From: Promethearchaeati archaeon
Lineage (GTDB): Archaea; Asgardarchaeota; Heimdallarchaeia; JABLTI01
Assembly: GCA_013166835.1 (NCBI GenBank)
Contig: JABLTI010000079.1
Location: 1 to 12,131 of the forward strand
Direction: 5' to 3'
Length of the DNA: 12,131 nucleotides
How positions within the stretch are numbered: the stretch's first letter is position 1; every line of letters starts with the position of its first letter. The translations under genes and the position numbers were made by a program. Shown in pieces: positions 1 to 12,131 of this stretch. The notes under the pieces were generated by a model. It was not told where the DNA came from, did not search any database, and saw only the letters and a program-made list of their open reading frames with translations.

Positions 1-181
1 CTAAGATTGGATCTACTGGTGAAAAAGCGACTTCCCTTACACGCCAACCATGCCCTCGCAACGTAGCAAAATTATTATTGTAAACACCTCTATCTACTAG
101 AAGAAAAATACCAAGAATTCCAGAAGAAACAACAACAAGAATGATAGATATTGAAACTAATATTTTGTATTTTCTTTGCAT
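1..181 (-). CDS. N-terminal part of a membrane-anchored WD40-repeat protein (continues beyond the left edge; alternative in-frame ATG at 193)
   Basis: Manual translation of the minus strand from ATG at 181: MQRKYKILVSISIILVVVSSGILGIFLLVDRGVYNNNFATLRGHGWRVREVAFSPVDPIL. Basic N-terminus, one hydrophobic helix, then a canonical WD40 start (TL-x-GH-x3-V-x2-VAFSP). The frame stays open to the window edge. Not in the supplied ORF track. Confidence 0.85.
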   Translation of the reverse strand, partial: MQRKYKILVSISIILVVVSSGILGIFLLVDRGVYNNNFATLRGHGWRVREVAFSPVDPIL

Positions 182-207
182 TACTAACCACATACCTTAA
201 TTATGAA

Positions 208-292
208 TGACAATAACTTGGAAATACTTATAAATATTTTCTCAGTTATGTTGTCCATATGATTCTCAAGTAAGTTGTCCAAAAGAATCCTA
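208..292. promoter_or_regulatory. Divergent promoter region with TATA-like box and repeated GTTGTCCA motifs (putative operator)
   Basis: TTATAAAT at 228-235; GTTGTCCA at 250-257 and 274-281; related inverted copy TGACAATAACT at 208-218. Lies between the divergent WD40 and wHTH genes. Confidence 0.4.
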
Positions 293-307
293 TAAGAAGG
301 TGTAGAA

Positions 308-958
308 ATGACAGATTCAGAAAAATTCATTCAAGATAATATTGGGTATCGAGAAAAGCCATTCGTTGTTCTTACTGATCCTAAAGCTACAAAGTGTCTT
401 TATGATAAAACAACTAAACCGGTTCTTGATTTGCTAAAAGAGAAACCCATGACAAGATATGATTTAGAAATAGAACTTAATAAATCACAAAAAACCATTT
501 ATCGTTATTTGAAAAAACTTGAGGAAGCGGGACTCATCGTTAAAGGAGGAAAAAGGATAATTAATGAAAAAGGAGAATACAAAGTTTATACTCTTTTCAG
601 TAGAACTGCAAAGATCTACTATGATAACTATAGTACAAAATTTGTAGATGAAGAGCTAAAGATAGAGACAAAGGCAGAACATCGCAACAAAATTATGAGT
701 CTTGTCGCCAAATTACTAGGACAACTTTATGAAAATCAAAAAGGAGACATAGGAATGCTTTGGACTCTTTACAAGGACATCGAAATAAAGAAACTAGAAT
801 ACATTGAGAGATTAATGAGCAGTGCAGATGATGAGATGTTAGATTTTATCAGCACATTAACTACTCTTGAAGTAGCGTTCATTATTGAAATGATAGGGAT
901 TTTTGCTATACTAAGAGAAAAGCAATGGGAAAAACAAGTTTTGGATAGTTTTTATTAA
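308..958 (+). CDS. Winged helix-turn-helix (ArsR/HTH_20-like) transcriptional regulator with helical C-terminal domain
   Basis: VLDLLKEKPMTRYDLEIELNKSQKTIYRYLKKLEEAGLIVKGGKR...LFSRTAKIY is a typical wHTH plus wing. AAGGTG-type RBS upstream. Confidence 0.85.
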   Translation: MTDSEKFIQDNIGYREKPFVVLTDPKATKCLYDKTTKPVLDLLKEKPMTRYDLEIELNKSQKTIYRYLKKLEEAGLIVKGGKRIINEKGEYKVYTLFSRTAKIYYDNYSTKFVDEELKIETKAEHRNKIMSLVAKLLGQLYENQKGDIGMLWTLYKDIEIKKLEYIERLMSSADDEMLDFISTLTTLEVAFIIEMIGIFAILREKQWEKQVLDSFY

Positions 959-964
959 GACATT

Positions 965-1456
965 TCAATATTCTAGGAGAGAATTGATATTATTTGGAAG
1001 GTGATCTATCCCATTAAATTCCTTTATTATGATTGACTTAATTTTCTGTTTAATTTCAGATTTCACATGAGTTATTGATAATTTATCTTTACCACCAATA
1101 CTCTCACAATCATCTTCTACTAACAAATCAGGAATTATTCTTTCAACAACATTTTTGTATGTTTCTTTATTTTGACGAAAAACTATGATCCCTGTTGGAA
1201 AATTATTTTTTTTAAGAACCTCTGTTATCTGATCTATTTCAAAGATTTGTGTTCGAGAAGTTAAATAAAGTATTTCTAATCCTTGATCCACCCATTTCCT
1301 TAATTTGTTTACAGCCCCACCAATTGGAATATATGTTTTGAAATCAGAAACCGATTCGAGGTTTTTTTTGACTTGTTTAATTATCTCCTCTCGAGTATAA
1401 CCAAGCCCTTGCTTGTGCATAAGGATAGTTCCTTCTGTGAAGATTAATAGACGCAT
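965..1456 (-). CDS. HAD-superfamily-fold protein with degenerate motif I
   Basis: Motif I-like LLIFTEGTIL, motif II YLTSR, motif III Lys (ETYKNV), motif IV LLVEDD, plus PIGGAVNKLRKWVDQGLEILY matching the HAD core helix-strand. Convergent with the wHTH gene. Confidence 0.65.
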   Translation of the reverse strand: MRLLIFTEGTILMHKQGLGYTREEIIKQVKKNLESVSDFKTYIPIGGAVNKLRKWVDQGLEILYLTSRTQIFEIDQITEVLKKNNFPTGIIVFRQNKETYKNVVERIIPDLLVEDDCESIGGKDKLSITHVKSEIKQKIKSIIIKEFNGIDHLPNNINSLLEY

Positions 1457-1632
1457 AATGAATTATTGGATGGTTAATTCTTATAATATTGTGGTTTAAG
1501 AAGAAGCAAAATTTGCTTTGTAAAAGAAATGTATATATTTTTTCTACAAATACTTTTTCTTTAAGAGTGAGTAATCCAATCAATGGGGACACGTTGAAGT
1601 GGCAAATGAAAGTAAGAAAAGATCTTATTTCT

Positions 1633-2448
1633 CTAAATCTTATCTAGGTCATCTAGATAGGTAGTCTCTCCCAGCAATTTTGATACATGAGAAATAAATC
1701 TAGCACCGGGAGCTCCATCAATGATATCATGATCAACCATAAAAGCAGTGCAAAGGAGATGCCTTTCTTCTACCTTACCATCACGTAAAACAAGGTGATT
1801 CTTTATACCACCTGTGGAAACATTCAAAGTTTTGTCACGAAAAGGTATGAGCCAACCACCTTGGCCTTTAATGAACATTCCCATCGAAGTAAGTCCAACA
1901 GTGCCAGCCAATTTTTTTAGTCGATAGGGATTAGTTATCATTTTTCTGATGATAAATTTCCGGAGAAATTTTGGTACGTAAGTATATAATGACGTATATT
2001 TGGTCTGACCTCTTGCAAGTTGTTCCCTTTCTTCAATTTTTTTATCTTGATATGATCTAATTTCGTCTGTTATTGTTCTAACACTTTTTTTATCCGCATT
2101 ACGGATAACATAATTGTACGGAACCTTTTTCCCTTCTTTAGTAGTAATTTCAATAATTACACTTACGTCTACATCATCAAAAACGATGAGTTTTCGACCT
2201 TTACGAAAGGTGTTCAAAGGTCTGTTTACTTGACAGGTTATACCGAGACACTTAGCTGTAAAAGCAGTCATCGAGACCTTGTAGTTTTGTTTTTCCTTAA
2301 TTTCCTCTATCTTAGCTAAAGAATCTGTAACATCTACTTCAATTAATCCATAAACTTTAGGCATAGTAGAAGCTACAGCATTGTAATCCGCTAGAATCAT
2401 TCTATTAGCTGATATCTTTCTTTTGTGATATTTCTTTTCTTTTGGCAT
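1633..2448 (-). CDS. 2-oxoacid dehydrogenase E2 acyltransferase catalytic-domain-only protein (CAT-like fold)
   Basis: EVDVT, KVSMTAFTAK, VIRNADKKSVRTITDEI, GTVGLTSMG and catalytic DHDIIDGAPGARF (HxxxDG). No lipoyl or E3-binding domain in 271 aa. Confidence 0.9.
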   Translation of the reverse strand: MPKEKKYHKRKISANRMILADYNAVASTMPKVYGLIEVDVTDSLAKIEEIKEKQNYKVSMTAFTAKCLGITCQVNRPLNTFRKGRKLIVFDDVDVSVIIEITTKEGKKVPYNYVIRNADKKSVRTITDEIRSYQDKKIEEREQLARGQTKYTSLYTYVPKFLRKFIIRKMITNPYRLKKLAGTVGLTSMGMFIKGQGGWLIPFRDKTLNVSTGGIKNHLVLRDGKVEERHLLCTAFMVDHDIIDGAPGARFISHVSKLLGETTYLDDLDKI

Positions 2449-2668
2449 GCAGATTAATTTGTTTCCAGCTCATTTATAAATTTCGCATTTATACAGAAAA
2501 AAGTAGATTCAATTCACTCACTTCTTCTTTCAAGACGAGTAGTTTGGCTCGGGAGGACATGATTTAATGATAAACTAACAGTATTCAAATAAAGGAATCT
2601 GTTTGACACAAGTAGCGTTAAGCTTTTTTAGTATAGAACCATTAAATATTACATTTGGAAGGTTAGTA

Positions 2669-3328
2669 ATGAGTAGAACATTGAGCAATTTATTTCGCAT
2701 CAATCTTGGAGAATATTTCCTCATAGATGATTATGGTGCAAACAAACGCATAACTCCGCGTCCGAGAATACTCTTTGATAATGATGCCTTAGTTATTGTT
2801 TCGAAACTTGATCAAAAGGTTTACGATTTTACCGGTGTTAATGCTTCTGAAAAGAAGCAAAACGCTTCTAGCAAATTAGCTAAGGATTTAGGGGCAAGAC
2901 GTGGCTTCTCAGTAGAACGAATTATCTTTCCCTCCGAAAGCATTTCTCCGGAGCATCTTCAATTCATTGAATACTTTGTAGATGAACACTATTTTGCTAA
3001 AATGTCAATAGACACTTCAGAGTATTATCGGTGCTATTTTTGCGAGGAATTATTAGGAGACAGTGGCAAGTCTTGTGCTTCTTGTGGGAAAGAGATCATT
3101 GAGTGTTTTATCTGTAATAGTCCCATTTTATATGGCGATCTCGTTGGGAAATGCAGCTTATGTGGAGCAGCAGCTCATCTCGTTCACTTCTATGAATGGC
3201 TAAAAGCTTTAGGAATGTGTGCAAAATGCAATGAGAAACTTCATCCTGAAGGAATTATACCCATAATTGAAGATAATAAAGAGACTTTCTTTGAGGATCT
3301 TCACCCAGAAGAAATCCAAGAGGATTAA
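2669..3328 (+). CDS. Gelsolin-like domain fused to zinc-finger + RING-like (C4-H2-C2) domain
   Basis: ATG at 2669 preferred over TTG at 2603. N-terminal LFDNDALVIVSKLDQKVYDFTGVNASEKKQNASSKLAKDL fits the gelsolin-repeat pattern (L-x2-D-hhhh...h-h-W/F-x-G-x2-S...A-x2-A). C-terminus has 5 CxxC pairs plus HLVHFYEW. Confidence 0.75.
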   Translation: MSRTLSNLFRINLGEYFLIDDYGANKRITPRPRILFDNDALVIVSKLDQKVYDFTGVNASEKKQNASSKLAKDLGARRGFSVERIIFPSESISPEHLQFIEYFVDEHYFAKMSIDTSEYYRCYFCEELLGDSGKSCASCGKEIIECFICNSPILYGDLVGKCSLCGAAAHLVHFYEWLKALGMCAKCNEKLHPEGIIPIIEDNKETFFEDLHPEEIQED

Positions 3329-3395
3329 TTATTGGCAATATTTTTTTATATTGTAGAAAGCATTCTTTCTCTGATTTTGATTGGTTGTAGGTTAT

Positions 3396-3731
3396 ATGAA
3401 TGAAGAACATGTTAAGAAACAGATAGCTTTCATGGAAAAATGTGCAAGTATGAACTGGGATGAAGTAGATTCTGAATCCCAAGACCAAACTATGGAAGAA
3501 CTGTATCTAGCACTATATGAGTTACGAAAGCAGATAAGTGAAATCGTTGTGATGCTTCCTCTCCCCCTACTAGTACGTTTTGCGAAAGCATTACAAGCTT
3601 TAAATGATAACCAGGATAACCTTACTAGTGATGTTCAGGAAGAACTCGAGATGTACTTCTTCTATGAAAACATTGAGGAGAAGATAGAAGAGAATAGAGA
3701 GTTGTCTTGGGAGGAACTCCTAGATAAATAA
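3396..3731 (+). CDS. Hypothetical acidic, helical protein
   Basis: Open frame of about 111 aa from ATG 3396 (track start TTG 3381); E/D-rich, amphipathic helices; closely followed by the next gene. Confidence 0.7.
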   Translation: MNEEHVKKQIAFMEKCASMNWDEVDSESQDQTMEELYLALYELRKQISEIVVMLPLPLLVRFAKALQALNDNQDNLTSDVQEELEMYFFYENIEEKIEENRELSWEELLDK

Positions 3732-3750
3732 GCAGTAGTTGATGATTACT

Positions 3751-4065
3751 ATGGTTGAACCACCACGTTTACAAGTACAGTTTGATGCGAGGGAAAAGAT
3801 TATACCTATTCTTTATGAGAAATATTGCAAAGATAAATACAAATTTGTGACAATTCCACCAACCATAGAAAAGGACCCAAAACCTGGACCAATTAAAAGA
3901 TTATCGTTTCATTTACGAGATGATTCCGGAGAAGTGGTTGCTTCTTTTAATCCATGGGGAATTGCATCATGTTATAAAGAAGATTTCAAGCACATCTTTG
4001 ATAAAATGGTCGAAGAAATGAATCAAGCTGCAAAAGATGCTCTCGAGGAATTTGAAGGGATTTAA
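3751..4065 (+). CDS. Hypothetical protein (alpha/beta, ~104 aa)
   Basis: ORF MVEPPRLQVQFDARE...FNPWG...; alternative starts at 3739/3742; protein-like composition and operon-like spacing. Confidence 0.75.
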   Translation: MVEPPRLQVQFDAREKIIPILYEKYCKDKYKFVTIPPTIEKDPKPGPIKRLSFHLRDDSGEVVASFNPWGIASCYKEDFKHIFDKMVEEMNQAAKDALEEFEGI

Positions 4066-4104
4066 TGACTTAATCTCTTGATAGAATCTGATTGAGGTGA
4101 AAAA

Positions 4105-4566
4105 ATGGTATTATTACTTGTACTCTATCATTCACAGGAATATGGGAACACAAAAGCAATGGCTGAAGCAGTAGCTGAAGGAGCACAAACTACAGGAACC
4201 AAAATAACTTTAGTCAATACGAATGAGAACCGACTTGATATAGAGCAGTTTAGGCAATTTGATGTAGTAGCTTTTGGTTCTCCTGATTATTACAGCTATA
4301 TTGCTGGAGGATTAAAGGTATTCGTAGATGATTTTTACATTGCTCGAAAAATCAATCGACAAGGATTGGAAGATAAGCCTTATGGATTATTTTACTCTCA
4401 CGGAGGTGGAGGATCCGTTCGAGAACCATTCGAGAAACTTTTCAGGATGTTGAGGATTGGTCCAAAGATTGGTAAAACAGTTGAATCATACGGGAGTCCT
4501 AATAGCAAGGTACTAGAAGAGTGTCGGGTATTGGGCCAACAACTAGTAGAAAATTCTAAGAAATAG
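4105..4566 (+). CDS. Flavodoxin / WrbA-like FMN-binding protein
   Basis: Phosphate-binding loop YHSQEYGNTKAMAEAVAEG, FGSPDYYSYIAGGLKVFVD and FYSHGGGGG. GAGGTGA RBS upstream. Confidence 0.9.
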   Translation: MVLLLVLYHSQEYGNTKAMAEAVAEGAQTTGTKITLVNTNENRLDIEQFRQFDVVAFGSPDYYSYIAGGLKVFVDDFYIARKINRQGLEDKPYGLFYSHGGGGSVREPFEKLFRMLRIGPKIGKTVESYGSPNSKVLEECRVLGQQLVENSKK

Positions 4567-4645
4567 TTGGTGCTCAAGACTTCTTGTTTTTTATTTTAAA
4601 AAATCAAAATTAAAATGAAAGAACAGAAAAAAGAAATACTAAGAA

Positions 4646-5233
4646 TTATCCCATATATATCATATCAATTGCTTGTATTGCTAGATAATACAATTCAGTA
4701 TTCATTTCTTTTCTAGAAATTTCAGTTAGAGGACCAAGGGCTTTTTTGTTTTTCAGATTTCCTAAAGCTCGTGCTGCTTGATGCCTGACAAATTTATCTT
4801 CGTCATTTCGCAAGATGTGAATCAATGAACCAACGACCCTATCGTCACCAATATTTCCTAAAGCTGTAACCAGTTCTGATCTGAATATTGGATTACTTTT
4901 CTTTCCCTTCAATTTTTTTAGAATTGGATTTATTGCTTTGGTGTCACTTATATCTCCTAAAGCTAAGGCTGCATGATAAATTACTCCATCATCTGCATCA
5001 TTAAGGCACTCGATTAATACATCAACAGCTTCTTTTGCTTCCAGCTTACCAAGAACTCCACATGCCCCCTCACGAAATTGGGCGCTAGTGTCTTCTTTCA
5101 GAAGTGAAATCAAAAGCTGTACGGTTTCTGTGTTATGCTTTTCTGAGAGGGATTTAATTGCTGCAGCTCGTTCCTCGCCATTCTCACTTTCAAGTTTAAC
5201 TATTTGTTTTTTTGTATCTACTGTTATTGTCAT
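4646..5233 (-). CDS. HEAT-repeat (PBS lyase/HEAT_2-type) alpha-solenoid protein
   Basis: About 5 repeats of ~31 aa: FREGACGVLGKLEAKEAVDVLIECLND, VIYHAALALGDISDTKAINPILKKL, FRSELVTALGNIGDDRVVGSLIHIL, VRHQAARALGNLKNKKALGPL. Confidence 0.92.
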   Translation of the reverse strand: MTITVDTKKQIVKLESENGEERAAAIKSLSEKHNTETVQLLISLLKEDTSAQFREGACGVLGKLEAKEAVDVLIECLNDADDGVIYHAALALGDISDTKAINPILKKLKGKKSNPIFRSELVTALGNIGDDRVVGSLIHILRNDEDKFVRHQAARALGNLKNKKALGPLTEISRKEMNTELYYLAIQAIDMIYMG

Positions 5234-5546
5234 AATATCATCTCAAATTAGCAATCATTTAATGATTATTGGTTAAAATATCATAGCTAACCTAAAAGGA
5301 AATTGCATTTTGCATTTCAAAATAAGAGTCAATTAATCAAGCTATCATATTTGCTAGGTATTAATTTATTGCTTACTAGTATTAAGTATTTGCTTAATTT
5401 AAATGAATTTTAAAAAAATTAAATGTTTTTTTAAGTAAATTCTTGAGAAAATTGGTTGTATCATTCATCACAAATTAGTTCTTATCTTTTCCTAGAAATA
5501 CCGATGCTTAGACTCGTATTTTTTAACGCTTCATTATTCATTAATT

Positions 5547-6650
5547 TTAAATTGGTAATGTCTTTTTTACAATATTTATTAGCTGGTACACTAATCTAAT
5601 TGACTTTGAAGAAGAATTTGCTTGATTAATAGAACCAGCTATATACAAGTCAAGATCTTTTGAGTATAAAAGAAAAGCACCCGTGGAACCAAGATGACCG
5701 ATTAATGAGGGAAGTTTTCTAAACATAGTCATAAATATTGGCAATTCAATATACATTGTTCCGAAACCATATTTTAATGGAAAGTCAATACCTCTCCATT
5801 GATGCATTAAAGGTAGTGTTGTTTTTTTATCAATAATTTTGCCAGTTAGTAGAGCACTCAGAAAAGTCAAACAATCGTTTCCTGTAGAAATCAATCCCCC
5901 ATCAGCCCATGAAGACTCAAATGGCTTATTATATGATATTACTTGATCATTAAAATAAAACTCAGCAACTGGCATGTCAAGCTTTTCTATTGGTTCGGAT
6001 CGTTTATAGAACCAAGTGTTTTTCAAACCCAAAGGAGAGAAAAGATTGTCTTGAAATACTCGAGATAATTTTTTGCTTTCTACTGATTCAATTATTTTGC
6101 CTAAAAGCTGGTAGTTAGTGTCCGAGTATTTTGCTTTTTGTCCAGGTTTAAAATTAGCTTTAAGTTTGTCACGTGCAATAGCTATTGTCTGATCTACTGT
6201 AATGGTTCTCTCAGGATTGTTTAAAATATAATTAAAGAAATTTGATCCTCCTTGAGATTTTTCAAGATAATAATCAGCAATACCGGAGGTGTGACTCAAC
6301 AAATGTTTTATTGTGATAGAATTTGTATAATCAATACTTTTGTAAATATGAATTCCATTAACAAGTGTTTTTGGTAGAAAACTAACTATAGGAGCATCTA
6401 AATCAATTTTTTTTTCTTCGTAAAATTTCATTATAATTGCTGCAGTAAACATTTTAGTAATGCTTGCTATAAAAAATGGTGTTTCGGGAGTTATTGAAAT
6501 TTCTTTTTCCTTGTTAGCAATCCCGGATGCACCAGACCAATTGAATTTTCCATCACCACTTGAAATTGATAGAATTGCACTATGGATATTTTTATCTTTT
6601 TCAAAAGTTGTATTAATAAAATCATGAAGTTTAGATTTTATAGGATTCAT
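5547..6650 (-). CDS. Serine hydrolase, beta-lactamase class C / D-Ala-D-Ala peptidase-like family
   Basis: FFIASITKMFTA (SxxK), ITIKHLLSHTSGI, KYSDTNYQLLGKIIE (YxN equivalent), ADGGLIST, IGHLGSTG (HxG). No evident signal peptide. Confidence 0.93.
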   Translation of the reverse strand: MNPIKSKLHDFINTTFEKDKNIHSAILSISSGDGKFNWSGASGIANKEKEISITPETPFFIASITKMFTAAIIMKFYEEKKIDLDAPIVSFLPKTLVNGIHIYKSIDYTNSITIKHLLSHTSGIADYYLEKSQGGSNFFNYILNNPERTITVDQTIAIARDKLKANFKPGQKAKYSDTNYQLLGKIIESVESKKLSRVFQDNLFSPLGLKNTWFYKRSEPIEKLDMPVAEFYFNDQVISYNKPFESSWADGGLISTGNDCLTFLSALLTGKIIDKKTTLPLMHQWRGIDFPLKYGFGTMYIELPIFMTMFRKLPSLIGHLGSTGAFLLYSKDLDLYIAGSINQANSSSKSIRLVYQLINIVKKTLPI

Positions 6651-6827
6651 CTAATTTGCACCATTGATAGATTTCATTTCTGTTCTATTTTAATTAGTGA
6701 TACTAAATTATATCATTTTAATTTTTCTTAAGAAATTTTTTTATTAAATTTGTAAGTAAATTAAGATGCTAATTATAAAGCATGGAAAATGCAAACTAAG
6801 ATATAGTTAAAGTGGAGATTAAATTCA

Positions 6828-7703
6828 ATGAAAATTGAAATACTGGGCACTCCTTTCAATGGTATTGGTTCACCCCCGAATATTGAAAATACAGCAGATG
6901 GTCTACGAGAGTTGAAACTGGTGGAACTTTTGGACTCAAAAGGGTGTTCAGTAAAAGATCTTGGCAATTTAGAAGGATTTCAAATACAAGATATCAAAGA
7001 TTCTAAAACCGGAATTATGGATTTTGATCTCTGGGTTAACTTGTCCAATAGCTTATCGAAAAAGCTCGAAGGAATACTCAGCCGAAAAGGATTTCCTTTA
7101 CTTCTTGGTGGTGACTGTAGAATGTTAATCGGAGTCTTCTCAGCTTTTGCACAAAGGAATGAAGAAATTGGCCTTATTTTTCTTGATGGTCACGCTGATT
7201 TCCATACTATTGAAACATCTCCTACTGGTGATCCTGCGGATATGGAATTAGCAGTATTAACTGGACGTGGTCCTGATAAAATTACGAGAATTGCAAAAAA
7301 ATACCCTTTACTTGAAGAAAAGAATATCCTAGTTTACGGTATCAGAGCATGGGATCAAATTGCAGAATCAAATATAAAGGTCTTCGATTGTAAACAAATG
7401 AAAGAAAAGGGAATAAGAACTGCATTGGATGAGGGAATAGAAAGCTTTCCCGGTAAAGAACTTCCTGTTTGGCTTCATCTAGATGTTGATGTTCTGGATC
7501 CGAAACTAATGCCAGTTATGTTTCCTGAATCTGATGGATTATCTATTGAAGAATTACAGGAATTCCTCAGTCATGAATGGCTTTTGGGACAAACCATTGG
7601 ATTGAATATTGCTTGTTATCATCCAGTTTTGGATAAAGACGGTAGTGCAGGATCTCGCTTAGTTTCATTGATTGCAGAATTTCTCTCACAGCAGAATATA
7701 TAA
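6828..7703 (+). CDS. Arginase/ureohydrolase family protein (non-canonical active site)
   Basis: LLLGGDC, LIFLDGHADFH, VYGIRAWD, VWLHLDVDVLDP, DGLS motifs of the ureohydrolase fold. Confidence 0.9.
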   Translation: MKIEILGTPFNGIGSPPNIENTADGLRELKLVELLDSKGCSVKDLGNLEGFQIQDIKDSKTGIMDFDLWVNLSNSLSKKLEGILSRKGFPLLLGGDCRMLIGVFSAFAQRNEEIGLIFLDGHADFHTIETSPTGDPADMELAVLTGRGPDKITRIAKKYPLLEEKNILVYGIRAWDQIAESNIKVFDCKQMKEKGIRTALDEGIESFPGKELPVWLHLDVDVLDPKLMPVMFPESDGLSIEELQEFLSHEWLLGQTIGLNIACYHPVLDKDGSAGSRLVSLIAEFLSQQNI

Positions 7704-7916
7704 TCAGGTTCAGGTAAGATGTGATGATTCACTAATGGAGAAAAATCTACTTCATGAATCTTCTAAAATTCTTTGTATAGAAGTTTTATCGGTGAAGAAT
7801 CAAAAAGGCGGAACTGAAATCAATAATATTCCCAACTTGACATTTCTTTTTTTGCTGAAATGTTTTTAAGTTCATAATCCAAATATTATCATTGGTTATT
7901 TCAAGTAAAAGGGTGG

Positions 7917-9716
7917 GTGTATTTGAGTTCTAAAGAGAAAATAGCTCAGCTTGTTGATATTAAAAATGAAAATGATTGTTCTTTATCTTTAATTGAAGAT
8001 GGTTGGGTAATTAATGGTGTTCTAGTGAGAAAGGATGAGTTTGAGCAAATTCTACCTTTAGTTTTTCGAGATATTCCCTCAGAGAAAAAAAGAACAAATT
8101 TCTTAATCGTATTAAAAAAACTTGAGAAGGATGCTATCGTTTATCTTCCATTTATTACCAATATCATATTAAAAAAATGGTTTGTTGAGAAAAAATTTAT
8201 TCAGAAATTTATCGAAATGATTATTTCAGTTACTGGTAATATTTCTGAGTATATCGATAAACTAAACGATATTAGATATCTTTCTGATTTAGGATCTCTA
8301 CTTGAAATTGATAGAAAATTTGACCTTTCTCTTTCTTGTTGGAAGAAAGCAGTTGATACAACACCAGCATTCTTCTTTGGTTGGATTAGATTGAGTTTTA
8401 ATCACATTCAATTAGGTGATCTAAATGAAGCTATACAAGCACTTTGGTATGGTGTTGTTAATAATAAGTACGATATTCCAGCTGGGAAGTTAAAAGGTAG
8501 GATAGATAAGAAATACCAACTTGAAATGGAAACTTTACTGAATAAATTACAAAAAAAAGAAAAACAAAATTACATGTTATTTTATATTCGGGGATTAATG
8601 GAAAATTATTTCCATAATGATCACAAATCAGCCATTGAATGTTTTAAGAAAAGTTTGAAATTAAATCCTCTTTTTACGGAAGCAGAAATACATCTAGCTA
8701 AATCCATCGGAAAAGCTGGAGATAAAGTTGGACAAATAAAAACTTATAAGAAAATCCTTGAAAGAGATGCGAAAAACACAAGAGCATTAAAAGAATTAGG
8801 ATTATATCACAAAAATAAAACAGATTATGATTTAGCAGTCCATTATTTTGAAATACTTCACAATCTTGAACCTAAAAATAAGAATTGGATTGCTGAACTT
8901 GCTTTTCTATACAGAACTTCGTCTCAAAAAGTAGGGGCTAGGTCCAAAAAATCATGGAAACGTGATTTAAAAAAATCGTATTCTTATTATAAAAAACTCA
9001 TTGCTATCGCTCCTTATGATGGTGAATATGTTTCCGGCTTTAATGGATTATTAATAGAACTTGCAAGATTCGTAGAAGCAAAAGATATTTTGTTCAACTA
9101 CATGACACTCAAAGGACCATCAAAGACTTTTATCCAAAAATTAGATGCAGCATATCAATGGCTGAAAGTACCATTTGATGAGCAAGAAGTTATAGAAGAA
9201 ATAAATTATAGAAGAAACAAGGATTCAGCTTATCCAAGAATACTAGAGTTCTTATCAACCGTCCGACCGGATATTCCTATCACACTTCCAAGAATAGCAA
9301 AATTTGTAGATTTTCCAGAAAAAAGAATGCAAGAAATATTAATAGAACTTGTTGAAGAAAATCCTGAAGTTGGGGAATATCTTGAATTGGAACAAGTTTT
9401 TATTCGAAAGCAAGATACTGATGAAATTATAAGTGATCTCAAGGTTAAGTATTCAACTTGTTATTATTGTGGTATGCCAATTGATTCTACTGATTTGTTT
9501 AATTGTTCTGCTTGTGACAAAGAGTTTCTCAAATGTAACGTATGCAAATTGCCGGTATCCTTCGGAGAAGAATTAGGGCAATGCAGTTTATGTGAAGCAT
9601 TAGGTCATCTTACGCATATTGAAGAATGGGTTAAGACTCAAGGAAAATGCCCTACATGTTTACAAGAAATACCTCTTCTAGGTGTAATTCCTTTGATAGA
9701 GGATTTGAAAAAATAA
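7917..9716 (+). CDS. TPR-repeat + PCI-like winged helix + zinc-finger/RING-like protein
   Basis: TPRs such as AIECFKKSLKLNP and ALKELGLYHKNKTDYDLAVHYFEILHNLEPKN; winged helix ITLPRIAKFVDFPEKRMQEILIELVEENPEVGEY (~9228-9410); C-terminal 5x CxxC plus GHLTHIEEW...CPTC (9459-9716). GTG start. Confidence 0.88.
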   Translation: MYLSSKEKIAQLVDIKNENDCSLSLIEDGWVINGVLVRKDEFEQILPLVFRDIPSEKKRTNFLIVLKKLEKDAIVYLPFITNIILKKWFVEKKFIQKFIEMIISVTGNISEYIDKLNDIRYLSDLGSLLEIDRKFDLSLSCWKKAVDTTPAFFFGWIRLSFNHIQLGDLNEAIQALWYGVVNNKYDIPAGKLKGRIDKKYQLEMETLLNKLQKKEKQNYMLFYIRGLMENYFHNDHKSAIECFKKSLKLNPLFTEAEIHLAKSIGKAGDKVGQIKTYKKILERDAKNTRALKELGLYHKNKTDYDLAVHYFEILHNLEPKNKNWIAELAFLYRTSSQKVGARSKKSWKRDLKKSYSYYKKLIAIAPYDGEYVSGFNGLLIELARFVEAKDILFNYMTLKGPSKTFIQKLDAAYQWLKVPFDEQEVIEEINYRRNKDSAYPRILEFLSTVRPDIPITLPRIAKFVDFPEKRMQEILIELVEENPEVGEYLELEQVFIRKQDTDEIISDLKVKYSTCYYCGMPIDSTDLFNCSACDKEFLKCNVCKLPVSFGEELGQCSLCEALGHLTHIEEWVKTQGKCPTCLQEIPLLGVIPLIEDLKK

Positions 9717-9718
9717 TT

Positions 9719-9808
9719 GATGCTCGAACTCACACTGCTCCTTGAAGAACTAGCAGGACGGTTTAGGAAGGACCTGCTTAGTTGGGATTTACCAGTAGAT
9801 TGAGCATC
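9719..9808. ncRNA. Candidate structured RNA / long imperfect hairpin between convergent genes
   Basis: GATGCTCGA (9719-9727) pairs with TTGAGCATC (9800-9808); ACTG/CAGT; AACTA-GCAGG (9748-9757) pairs with CCTGC-T-TAGTT (9773-9783). About 48% GC by manual count in an AT-rich context. Family not recognised. Confidence 0.4.
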
Positions 9809-9833
9809 CTGATAAAATAATGATAGATTTCAC

Positions 9834-12131
9834 TCATTCTATGATAGCAGATGCTAGTTTTTGCTTTTGAAGCAATCGTATACTTGGTGAAGCCGATATC
9901 AATATACATCCTATTGCAAAACCAAGAATTAACAGATAATCTCCCCAAAAATACACAGAATCCAATTTGAAGAAAAACTGACTAATGAAATATTGAATCA
10001 TTCGACCCAAACCTTCTCCACCAACTGCTATTCCAAAAAGAACAGCAAAAGTGATCAGAAAACCCAGCTCCAAGATGATTTGAAACCAAATTTGTCCTTT
10101 TTGAAATCCAAATGTTCTCTGCAATGCTATCTCACGTGTTCGTTCAATTATTGAAACAAAGGCTGTAACAAAGATAATTAGAAATGAAATAATCAAAGCT
10201 AAAATAATTGTTACTTTTACGATAAAGAGCTGTGTGTTAACCATGTGAACCATACGAGCTTCGTAAGTATCTTTCGTAATCGCATATTGAATTTGTATAT
10301 TTTCATTCAAATCTAAGAGAATTGAGTCTAAAGCTTCTGAACTCAAAGAATCTATATTATTCAATTGAAGAAAGGCATTATTTATCGCAGAAAATCCTAT
10401 TGTTTCTTCAATGGCAGGTATTAACATGAAGCATGAATTTGGTACGTCTAAATCACGGACTATACCAACAATTTCAATTCGAAACTCAGCACCGAATGAC
10501 GAGAAGTTAAAATAATCACCGATTTCAAGCCCCAAGGGTTTTGCAGAATAACTTGAGATTATCCCTTCTTGAGCCGTTGCATTAGAAAACATTGTACCTT
10601 CCTCAAGATTTAGTGAGAATAATGATGAATTGTGTTGTAACCCTCTGATTTCTAAACCGTAATCAGGCGTGTCCGGTATCTCAGCATTTCCATGTAAATA
10701 TGGTTCATAATTCTTGACAAAGATGTAATTTTCAAAAATACTCTCGATCTCAACTTCTGATTTGAAGGAATCAAATCGAGTTTGCACATCCCAATGGATC
10801 TGATCATTAAAGTAATTATCAAATGTTCCATTTATGGAAGACTGTGTTTGGATTAAGGCGAAGGAAATCGCAATAGCACCAATAAACGCACAAGTAATTA
10901 GAGTACCTCTTGCTCGATTTCGAGAAATATTGCGTAATGGATACTTTAGTGAAATGGATAAGATTGAATTTGGTTTTTGTGTTCTCTTCAAATTGGTTGG
11001 ATCTTTCTTCTTAGTCTTAACTTTATACTCAGATTTCCCTCGAATTGCTTCGTAAGGGGTCATTTTTACGTTACTTCGACAAGCAACATATGTGAAGACT
11101 TGGGAGGTAAGAACTACAAGAGCAGGAACAATACCTAGCGCTATGGGTGAGAATTGAGTCAATATCTGAGGGATCCCCCATCGGGAGACCAAGACACGAA
11201 CCATAATCTCTAATACACCATATGATCCAAGGATACCAATAAGAATAGAAAATAATGAGATAATTAACGTGCGGAGCATAAAAACCCGTAAGATGATTTT
11301 CGGTTTATAACCAAAAGCATACAACATACCAGTCTGTTTTCTCTGTTCAACAGCATATCGTTTAGTGATCAAATAAATGACGATTCCTGCACCCAAAATT
11401 ATTGCACAAGCCATAACGAAAAGTACTTGAGAGGTTAGATTGAGGACATCTTGGAATAAGGAACTAATGCTGAATTCTCGAACATACCAGGAATAGAGCA
11501 TTTGTGCTTCGATAGGATTGACTGCTTCGGATAAATCTGTTGCAAACGCTTCTACAAAGTCAAGGTCAGGATCATTTGGGAAATAAAATGCTATACTATC
11601 GAATTGAATTTCTGACCATTCATTAAATTCTTGGAAAGTATTGTAGTTAACATAGATGGCTCCTTCTAAGGATAAATCATAACTTAGAAATTCAATGGAT
11701 TTCACCAAGCCAACAATTTCTACTTCTTTCTCACCAGCTAAGGTATAAAGGGTAATCGAACTACCAATCTCAACATCTAATTCCTTGGCAAATGATTCCA
11801 GAATAAAAGCTGTATTATTTCGCAATTCTGAAAATGCTGTATCTGAACTTATCTGATTGACAACTGGAGGAGCGGTTGCATTAATTCCAATAATACTTGT
11901 ATAATACCAATTTGAAGCATGATACAACTGAAAACTACAAGAAGGGCGAATATCATATGAAACACCACTAAAGTTTAAATTGGTATTAATCAAATCATCC
12001 ACACTAGAGCGAACTTCATCAACATTTCCTTGAAAACCCATTTCCAAGTATGTCAATTTATATGATTCATTGCTTTCAATGACAGAAGCATTGATACTAG
12101 GATCAATTGAGAACATAGCTAACGGAAATGA
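9834..12131 (-). CDS. FtsX/MacB-type ABC transporter permease with duplicated extracellular + FtsX domains (5' end beyond the window)
   Basis: Two FtsX signatures (VEQRKQTGMLYAFGY; IIERTREIALQRTFGF), internal LRNISRNRARGTL, two extracellular domains with IVG-x-V. The frame is open upstream of ATG 12116 to the window edge (SFPLA-MFS). Confidence 0.92.
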   Translation of the reverse strand, partial: SFPLAMFSIDPSINASVIESNESYKLTYLEMGFQGNVDEVRSSVDDLINTNLNFSGVSYDIRPSCSFQLYHASNWYYTSIIGINATAPPVVNQISSDTAFSELRNNTAFILESFAKELDVEIGSSITLYTLAGEKEVEIVGLVKSIEFLSYDLSLEGAIYVNYNTFQEFNEWSEIQFDSIAFYFPNDPDLDFVEAFATDLSEAVNPIEAQMLYSWYVREFSISSLFQDVLNLTSQVLFVMACAIILGAGIVIYLITKRYAVEQRKQTGMLYAFGYKPKIILRVFMLRTLIISLFSILIGILGSYGVLEIMVRVLVSRWGIPQILTQFSPIALGIVPALVVLTSQVFTYVACRSNVKMTPYEAIRGKSEYKVKTKKKDPTNLKRTQKPNSILSISLKYPLRNISRNRARGTLITCAFIGAIAISFALIQTQSSINGTFDNYFNDQIHWDVQTRFDSFKSEVEIESIFENYIFVKNYEPYLHGNAEIPDTPDYGLEIRGLQHNSSLFSLNLEEGTMFSNATAQEGIISSYSAKPLGLEIGDYFNFSSFGAEFRIEIVGIVRDLDVPNSCFMLIPAIEETIGFSAINNAFLQLNNIDSLSSEALDSILLDLNENIQIQYAITKDTYEARMVHMVNTQLFIVKVTIILALIISFLIIFVTAFVSIIERTREIALQRTFGFQKGQIWFQIILELGFLITFAVLFGIAVGGEGLGRMIQYFISQFFFKLDSVYFWGDYLLILGFAIGCILISASPSIRLLQKQKLASAIIE

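Follow-up and report, generated by a model that had tools for sequence, protein, structure and literature searches.

A ProGel-type gelsolin-fold domain joined to a zinc ribbon–RING module in a heimdallarchaeial protein: a candidate actin-directed RING-type E3 ligase

In a 12,131-nucleotide stretch of DNA from a heimdallarchaeial genome (Promethearchaeati archaeon, assembly GCA_013166835.1, contig JABLTI010000079.1, positions 1 to 12,131 of the forward strand; the whole stretch is referred to here as the window), the open reading frame (ORF) P0001 encodes a soluble protein of two parts. On the evidence of a predicted structure, with marginal-to-fair support from sequence profiles, residues ~9–105 are a divergent domain of the ProGel-type gelsolin/cofilin fold; a C-terminal zinc ribbon–RING module follows. 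We tentatively read this protein as an actin-directed RING-type E3 ligase, and give that reading a probability of roughly 0.4. An earlier note, made from the sequence alone, had drawn attention to this ORF; the ORF, of 219 residues, lies at the coordinates that it gave, and both strings that it quoted (LFDNDALVIV... and KVYDFTGVNASEKKQNASSKLA) occur in the translation. It knew of no characterized gelsolin–RING fusion, in agreement with our searches of open-access PubMed Central (PMC) and bioRxiv, which found no description of such an architecture. The combination thus appears to be new, giving the ProGel-type domain a new partner and the RING module a new targeting domain.

The fold of the N-terminal domain was assigned from an AlphaFold2 model of P0001, built on an alignment of 29 fairly similar sequences, with a mean predicted local distance difference test score (pLDDT) of 85.3 and a predicted template modeling score of 0.79. 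The five models agree with each other (mean pLDDT 74.9–85.3), and the block means of pLDDT are 90–97 across residues 11–90. The modeled domain is composed of four strands, a long 18-residue helix (residues 61–78), a further strand (81–87) and a 10-residue helix (94–103), and its central mixed sheet is flanked by the long and the short helix, as in the gelsolin/cofilin fold. When the domain was compared with the Protein Data Bank (PDB) using Foldseek, the top match was the ProGel of Thorarchaeota (7c2f_B; E 2.9e-6; template modeling (TM) score 0.85, normalized to ProGel), aligned over 87 columns at 20% identity with a root-mean-square deviation (rmsd) of 1.8 Å, and gelsolin-family domains accounted for all 50 of the 50 best matches listed. 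VIA-align, which was run independently of Foldseek on 48,161 representative chains, likewise placed ProGel first (Z 11.9, rmsd 1.8 Å, 87 of 88 residues), and ranks 1–18 were all occupied by gelsolin-family domains (Z 8.0–11.9). The Z values were 10.4 for Thorarchaeota 2DGel3, 9.2–10.2 for domains of villin, gelsolin, adseverin and fragmin, and 8.8 and 8.4 for the two-domain gelsolins (2DGels) of Heimdallarchaeota and Lokiarchaeota, respectively; the gelsolin-like domain of Sec23a scored 7.8. A match to the alpha-glucosidase 1obb_A (E 0.07–0.09) was regarded as chance.

Sequence profiles give weaker support, in the same register. A hidden Markov model (HMM) profile of the P0001 family matches ProGel in the correct register (E 0.092). 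For profile–profile comparison with hhalign, we used Pfam-positive gelsolins extracted from genomes of the class to which P0001 itself belongs, obtaining P 0.024–0.028 against its two-domain gelsolins, P 1.6e-4 against seven ProGel-like proteins of 110–118 residues, and P 2.9e-5 (probability 74%, 82 gap-free columns) against the ProGel-like proteins combined with domain 1 of the 2DGels. By this measure, the closest sequence relatives of the domain are the seven ProGel-like proteins (L111–L117), which are single-domain, Pfam-positive proteins from another family of the same class. In a feature search of the ESM Atlas, the nearest neighbors were Asgard clusters of ~100-residue proteins (scores 0.93 and 0.92); in the top two, 28% and 13% of the members are labeled with PF00626, the Pfam gelsolin model. 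The assignment of the first ~105 residues to the gelsolin family, put forward in the earlier note from pattern recognition with an AlphaFold and Foldseek check recommended, is therefore upheld by the model and by both structural aligners, with marginal-to-fair backing from the sequence profiles. A phmmer search with residues 1–115 against 1.84 billion representative proteins returned nine matches. We set aside two of these (P0033 and P0036), which read as translated tandem repeats; the remaining seven comprised orthologues, fragments and a single paralogue type, and the domain was found in no other architecture in that search.

The C-terminal module (residues ~120–208) begins with a zinc ribbon, continues with a RING variant of the cross-brace kind (C4-H2-C2) and ends in a conserved tail, with three predicted zinc sites in all. 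Across 29 orthologues, little or no variation is seen at its 12 Cys/His ligand positions, and none at W177. In an alignment of 26 module sequences (A3: that of P0001, six from orthologues and 19 from paralogues within the class), the sole invariant columns are ten Cys, two His and one Trp, so that the zinc-finger RING that had been noted straight after the gelsolin part is confirmed with its ligands intact. From the alignment with Arkadia, we infer that ligands 3 and 4 are supplied by C162-x2-C165 and ligands 5 and 6 by H170 and H173. Also conserved are V/I148, flanked by RING cysteines 1 and 2, and W177, which follows the second His; we take these positions to contact the ubiquitin-conjugating enzyme (E2) in RING-H2 ligases. 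Pro185 is variable among orthologues.

Searching the PDB with the module profile retrieved two kinds of relatives. RING-H2 ligases matched at E 2.2e-7 to 1.5e-5 (Arkadia 2.2e-7, RNF24 7.1e-7, RNF165 1.8e-6, RNF126 2.5e-6). The C-terminal zinc modules of subunits of the intraflagellar transport complex IFT-A and of GATOR2 matched over nearly the whole profile: WDR19/IFT144 at 3.3e-7 (positions 7–90), the Tetrahymena IFT-A chain 8hme_E at 2.9e-6, WDR59 at 9.6e-6, MIOS at 9.8e-6, and WDR24 at 1.7e-5 to 5.3e-5 (four deposited sequences). In the alignment with the C-terminus of WDR19/IFT144, the zinc ribbon of P0001 is paired with the first zinc knuckles. Among the Pfam models matched by the 26 module sequences at E≤0.01 are DZR (21 of 26), zinc_ribbon_16 (11 of 26), and zf-RING_2, Prok-RING_1 and zf-RING_16 (16 of 26 each). 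P0001's own module matches DZR alone (1.1e-4 for residues 112–219; 5.1e-4 for the whole protein; both below the curated cut-off) and has no zf-RING_2 match at E 0.01, while the whole protein gives weak matches to the RING models (Prok-RING_1 E 0.46, zf-C3HC4_3 E 0.64); zf-RING_2 exceeds the Pfam cut-off in two of ten full-length module paralogues. A separate structure model of the module (pLDDT 84.4) has IFT-A chains at Foldseek ranks 1–3 (E 9.8e-4, TM 0.58–0.67, 93 columns). In VIA-align, it matches WDR19 with Z 9.7 across 89 residues, model residues 5–98 being paired with chain residues 1248–1337, tail included. The RING/U-box fold itself was matched by the Prp19 U-box (Z 7.9–8.1, rmsd 1.2–1.9, 56 residues) and by RNF4, TRAF6 and Ring1b (Z 6.5–7.1), middling values that we regard as supportive jointly with the sequence evidence.

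Of 154 candidates scored, 28 are homologues of P0001 at E≤0.001 (54–89% identity, 158–230 residues); the fusion is kept in all of them and is therefore not an assembly artefact. All are annotated as 'hypothetical protein'; those that carry a taxonomic label come from Heimdallarchaeota/Asgard metagenome bins, with one labeled Bathyarchaeia and one labeled Thorarchaeota. In 23 of the 28, the start coincides with the P0001 ATG at 2669 (MSR...), which we therefore take as the start in preference to a TTG at 2603 that would lengthen the protein by 22 residues. When we surveyed 83 genomes of the class with the full-length profile, matches to the entire gelsolin–RING protein were confined to the genus of the window, being found in 8 of its 11 genomes (the window's included), one of them interrupted by a contig end; the three members that lack it are 69%, 82% and 90% complete. 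All other genomes of the class gave their best E-value for the module alone.

Two members of the genus have a second, paralogous gelsolin-fold–RING gene of 209 residues (L108:275-901:+ and L109:205-831:-), the N-terminal domain of which is about 41% identical to that of P0001, and the window's own genome has a fragment of this type, truncated by a contig end (C31:1-216, L015). A further copy of the N-terminal domain (G001:C264:2014-2348) is split in two matches with the in-frame stops TAG, TGA and TAA, and may be decayed; no intact ORF of this type is among the ORFs listed for the stretch fetched around it.

By itself, the module is common. Its profile finds matches at E≤1e-6 in 209 of 301 sampled genomes across the Asgard phylum, one family having none in 76 genomes, and among the open frames listed, of ~90 to 1,691 codons, it stands at the C-terminal end. 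There are at least 16 matches in the window's own genome (17 of 74 candidates scored). The module as discussed here covers window positions 3002-3325 and loci L088–L107. The partners of the module are TPR repeats, HEAT repeats together with PCI, several winged-helix/PCI-like domains, and large regions free of Pfam matches. Asgard archaea attach it, always C-terminally, to interaction scaffolds (TPR, HEAT, PCI/winged-helix). No Pfam-positive canonical gelsolin shares an ORF with the module among the class matches listed. A protein of ~656–716 residues recurs in the class (L090–L096, L099–L101 and L106; for example L092:185-2269:-), in which winged-helix/PCI-like matches (TrmB, PCI, DDRGK-like) precede the zinc ribbon–RING module and the last module Cys is often followed by Arg or Lys. 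The window's own genome also encodes large module-bearing proteins of 821 residues (C60, L088:562-3024:+) and 1006 residues (C142, L089:391-3408:+); no Pfam domain was found upstream of the module in either, and a PDB sequence search gave no match for the longer one. A further module-bearing protein of this genome lies on C185.

If P0001 is an actin-directed ligase, the gelsolin-fold domain would be its targeting part. As a monomer it would probably dock on actin with low affinity, in line with what is reported on ProGel; actin-binding gelsolin/ProGel proteins bind G- or F-actin between subdomains 1 and 3. A charged E2 would be recruited by the RING module, and actin or actin-bound proteins would become modified. 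The components that such a route would use are encoded in the same genome: actin (448 bits, 379 residues; contig C176), an E2 (113 bits; C197) in which an HPN motif is followed by a Cys, ubiquitin (50 bits; C194), and three ThiF-family genes resembling ubiquitin-activating enzymes (E1; C130, C207 and C19). Catalytic competence would fit the alignment, in which all eight RING ligands, V/I148 and W177 are kept. By analogy, the recurrence of an interaction domain followed by a C-terminal RING, with TPR, HEAT and PCI partners, is as would be expected for substrate-adaptor E3s.

Several observations weigh against this reading. PF00626 has no match in P0001 at E≤1, and in a six-frame scan at E≤0.01 it matched other loci and neither P0001 nor its orthologues in the class. 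The WxG motif of gelsolins appears in the hhalign alignment as F54-T-G56, with a nearly invariant Gly and, as had been pointed out before, Phe in the Trp column, a conservative change. D39 aligns with the Asp of the G-D motif in the gelsolins of the class, most orthologues having Ser there, and a Lys, K63, stands where those gelsolins have their helix-start acidic residue. We take these two columns to be the type II calcium ligands of gelsolin (Asp before strand 3 and Glu at the start of the long helix), and the aligned residues indicate that the domain lacks calcium sites. The most conserved surface of the domain is not the long helix; it is formed by a FRINL segment at the N-terminus and by the short helix, PEHLQFIEYF, and these two elements could pack against the RING module instead. 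Asn, or Asp in two relatives, directly follows the last RING Cys (position 188), where many active RINGs have an Arg or Lys 'linchpin'. The closest whole-module relatives, those of IFT-A and GATOR2, are presumably structural junctions for the most part and not proven ligases. Neither actin nor ubiquitin genes form a conserved neighborhood at the loci compared, and the fusion is restricted to a single genus. Finally, ProGel binds rabbit actin very weakly, with a Kd of 337 µM, according to a published report (PMC7444086), in which extensions are described as raising activity (Kd 7.7 µM for 1DGelX). By analogy, the fused and possibly dimerizing module could plausibly matter for actin binding by P0001.

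The strongest alternative, which we hold to be somewhat improbable, is that the gelsolin-fold domain recognizes a target other than actin, as that of Sec23/24 does, and that P0001 is a RING-type ligase or adaptor acting outside the cytoskeleton. The missing Pfam gelsolin match, the altered WxG Trp and acidic positions, the latter binding calcium in gelsolin, and the concentration of conservation outside the long helix would all fit a changed partner, as would the presence of Sec23a among the fold matches. A canonical two-domain gelsolin is, in addition, already encoded on another contig of the genome (PF00626 at 55 and 33 bits). However, the nearest structures are clearly the actin-binding ProGel and 2DGel (Z 11.9 and 10.4, against 7.8 for Sec23a), and the sequence profile ties the domain to the class's own ProGel-like proteins.

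We think it unlikely that P0001 is instead a non-catalytic assembly adaptor tethered to actin, with the module serving, as in GATOR2 and IFT-A, as a junction for hetero-oligomerization with other module-bearing proteins and the gelsolin-fold domain tying the assembly to actin filaments. Such a role is suggested by the best whole-length matches of the module, which are to WDR19/IFT144 (E 3.3e-7; Z 9.7; Foldseek ranks 1–3) and to WDR24, WDR59 and MIOS, by the 16 or more module copies in the same genome on TPR, HEAT/PCI and unknown large proteins, and by the Asn that replaces the usual Arg/Lys after the last Cys. However, WDR19 is without two His in the alignment, whereas in the P0001 module none of the eight RING ligands is lost, and the Trp is kept together with a hydrophobic residue in the C1–C2 interval; this retention fits a working RING. 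It is very improbable that structure prediction created the likeness to gelsolin artificially, or that a widespread alpha/beta arrangement happened to match by chance: although all structural evidence comes from one AlphaFold2 model based on 29 fairly similar sequences, and the weaker sequence comparisons (E 0.092 with ProGel, P 0.024–0.028 with the 2DGels) would not carry the assignment alone, the five models agree, two aligners rank gelsolin domains at the top with 87 of 88 ProGel residues superposed at 1.8 Å, hhalign reaches P 2.9e-5 in the same register, and the protein-language-model neighbors are gelsolin-labeled Asgard clusters. The fullest form of the actin-directed ligase reading holds that P0001 is a dedicated ubiquitin ligase acting on actin through a ProGel-type domain, that it is the first direct ubiquitin–actin coupling outside eukaryotes, and that its module is the archaeal counterpart of the IFT-A/GATOR2 zinc modules; taken as a whole, we consider this doubtful.

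P0001 can be compared with several described systems. ProGel (PDB 7c2f; Akil et al. 2020, PMC7444086), which lacks calcium sites according to that paper, is, like the N-terminal part of P0001, a single ~90-residue domain of the gelsolin/cofilin fold, and in both the strands and helices follow one another in the same sequence. The P0001 domain differs in being 18–20% identical to ProGel, missed by PF00626 and altered to Phe at the WxG Trp, and ProGel stands alone whereas P0001 is fused to the zinc ribbon–RING module. A further likeness is the absence of the residues that align with two acidic positions of the class's gelsolins, the canonical calcium ligands. The 1DGelX of Thorarchaeota also pairs one gelsolin domain with a C-terminal extension that alters activity (PMC7444086); its domain X is described there as a predicted coiled coil, for which reason we do not regard it as the same architecture, and the main text mentions neither zinc nor RING. 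Loki2DGel and MKD1-2DGel (Akil et al. 2022, PMC9433394) resemble P0001 in that a gelsolin part is followed by a C-terminal zinc-binding domain. According to that paper, the Loki zinc domain is also present, always C-terminally, on unrelated multi-domain proteins of its lineage, has not been found beyond Loki, and showed no association with F-actin. Loki2DGel has two canonical calcium-binding gelsolin domains, a linker of 69–79 residues and a one-zinc (CxxC)2 domain, whereas P0001 has one divergent domain, a linker of ~14 residues and a three-zinc ribbon-plus-RING module. As a possible homologue of the module, the Loki zinc domain was rejected: five Loki-type 2DGel-Link-Zn ORFs score 1.1–3.2 bits against the module HMM with filters off, and the two fusions therefore appear to have arisen independently along similar lines.

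With the RING-H2 E3s (Arkadia/RNF111, RNF165, RNF24 and RNF38; zf-RING_2), the module shares the cross-brace spacing of the eight ligands, the hydrophobic residue between C1 and C2, the signature H-x2-[H/C]-x3-W and, in many module paralogues, the ending C-P-x-C. It differs from them in that ligands 3 and 4 come from a C-x2-C, placed four residues ahead of the first His, and not from a C-x-H, that ligand 6 is His, that a zinc ribbon precedes the RING, and that the gelsolin-fused family has Asn after the last Cys. The likeness to IFT-A (WDR19/IFT144, IFT122) and GATOR2/SEA (WDR24, WDR59, MIOS) extends over ribbon, RING and tail, which align whole-length, and to the position of the module, which is always C-terminal and often follows a solenoid; those proteins carry beta-propellers and long solenoids, whereas P0001 has a gelsolin-fold domain, and in WDR19 two His are lost. 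We found no paper in open-access PMC or bioRxiv that likens an Asgard module to the RINGs of GATOR2 or intraflagellar transport. A 2026 preprint on structural clusters (10.64898/2026.10.28.762692) links Asgard solenoid clusters to RING-type E3 ligases and, in the part consulted, presents no gelsolin–RING protein. The gelsolin-like domain of Sec23/Sec24 has the same fold in a different domain context and is a clearly weaker match than ProGel; according to PMC7444086, it represents the gelsolin fold without demonstrated actin binding.

The coordinates of the features of P0001, and of the second module encoded in the window, are collected in Table 1. This second copy belongs to a TPR protein of 599 residues (7917-9716, plus strand; TPR_2 4.2e-13) and is 34% identical to the P0001 module over 113 residues (BLASTP E 1e-21), so that two module genes lie 4.6 kb apart in the window; a PDB sequence search with the TPR–RING protein matched the TPR repeats only.

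Table 1. Positions in the window of P0001, its parts, and a paralogous module
Feature	Coordinates	Strand	Basis
Whole ORF P0001	2669..3328	+	219 residues + stop (stop codon 3326-3328); gelsolin-fold domain + zinc ribbon + RING variant
GGAAGG, possible ribosome-binding site	2657..2662	+	6 nt upstream of ATG; read from sequence
Single ProGel-type gelsolin/cofilin-fold domain, residues ~9-105 (predicted)	2693..2983	+	AlphaFold2, Foldseek, VIA-align, hhalign
Linker, residues 106-119	2984..3025	+	pLDDT 74 for residue blocks 101-120; alignment variable
Zinc ribbon, residues 120-141, CxxC (C122, C125) ... CxxC (C136, C139)	3026..3091	+	Cys invariant or nearly so
RING variant, residues 144-190	3098..3238	+	C146, C149, C162, C165, H170, H173, C184, C187, W177
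Conserved tail, residues 191-208, PEGIIPI.E.NK..FF, contains short strand	3239..3292	+	near-invariant in orthologues, similar in genus paralogues
Acidic end, residues 209-219, probably disordered	3293..3325	+	pLDDT <50 for 212-219; absent from most homologues
Paralogous zinc ribbon–RING module, C-terminus of TPR protein (7917-9716)	9441..9713	+	BLASTP, profile match

Two small same-strand ORFs lie directly downstream of P0001 (3381-3731, 116 residues, and 3739-4065, 108 residues, both on the plus strand); neither has a significant Pfam match, the first having none at all and the second giving E 0.057–0.16. On the other side, and diverging from P0001, the minus-strand ORF 1633-2448 encodes a stand-alone protein of 271 residues that matches the catalytic domain only of 2-oxoacid dehydrogenase acyltransferases (9.1e-19); its adjacency to P0001 is conserved in close relatives. 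All three neighbors are kept only in the two closest relatives of P0001. At three more distant loci, the neighbors are unrelated (radical SAM, DNA methylase with restriction enzyme, Ldh_2, DUF2229, APH), and no operon argument is therefore possible. Across the window as a whole, Pfam identifies an ArsR/TrmB-type regulator, 2-oxoacid-dehydrogenase-acyltransferase-like, flavodoxin-like, HEAT-repeat, beta-lactamase-family and arginase-family proteins, and an FtsX-type permease.

To our knowledge, Asgard archaea are the only prokaryotes with a regulated actin cytoskeleton, and ubiquitin systems are also present in them. The fusion described here may connect ubiquitin-type signaling with the actin skeleton of archaea, and P0001, with its 219 residues, is a compact and directly testable candidate for an actin–ubiquitin link that predates eukaryogenesis. 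The fusion carries limited weight for the origin of eukaryotes, since it occurs in a single genus. The wider point may be the module, which is common on solenoid proteins across Asgard archaea, aligns from end to end with the zinc modules at the C-termini of IFT-A and GATOR2 proteins, and may be their archaeal counterpart; its spread and this likeness bear on the origin of these eukaryotic scaffolds.

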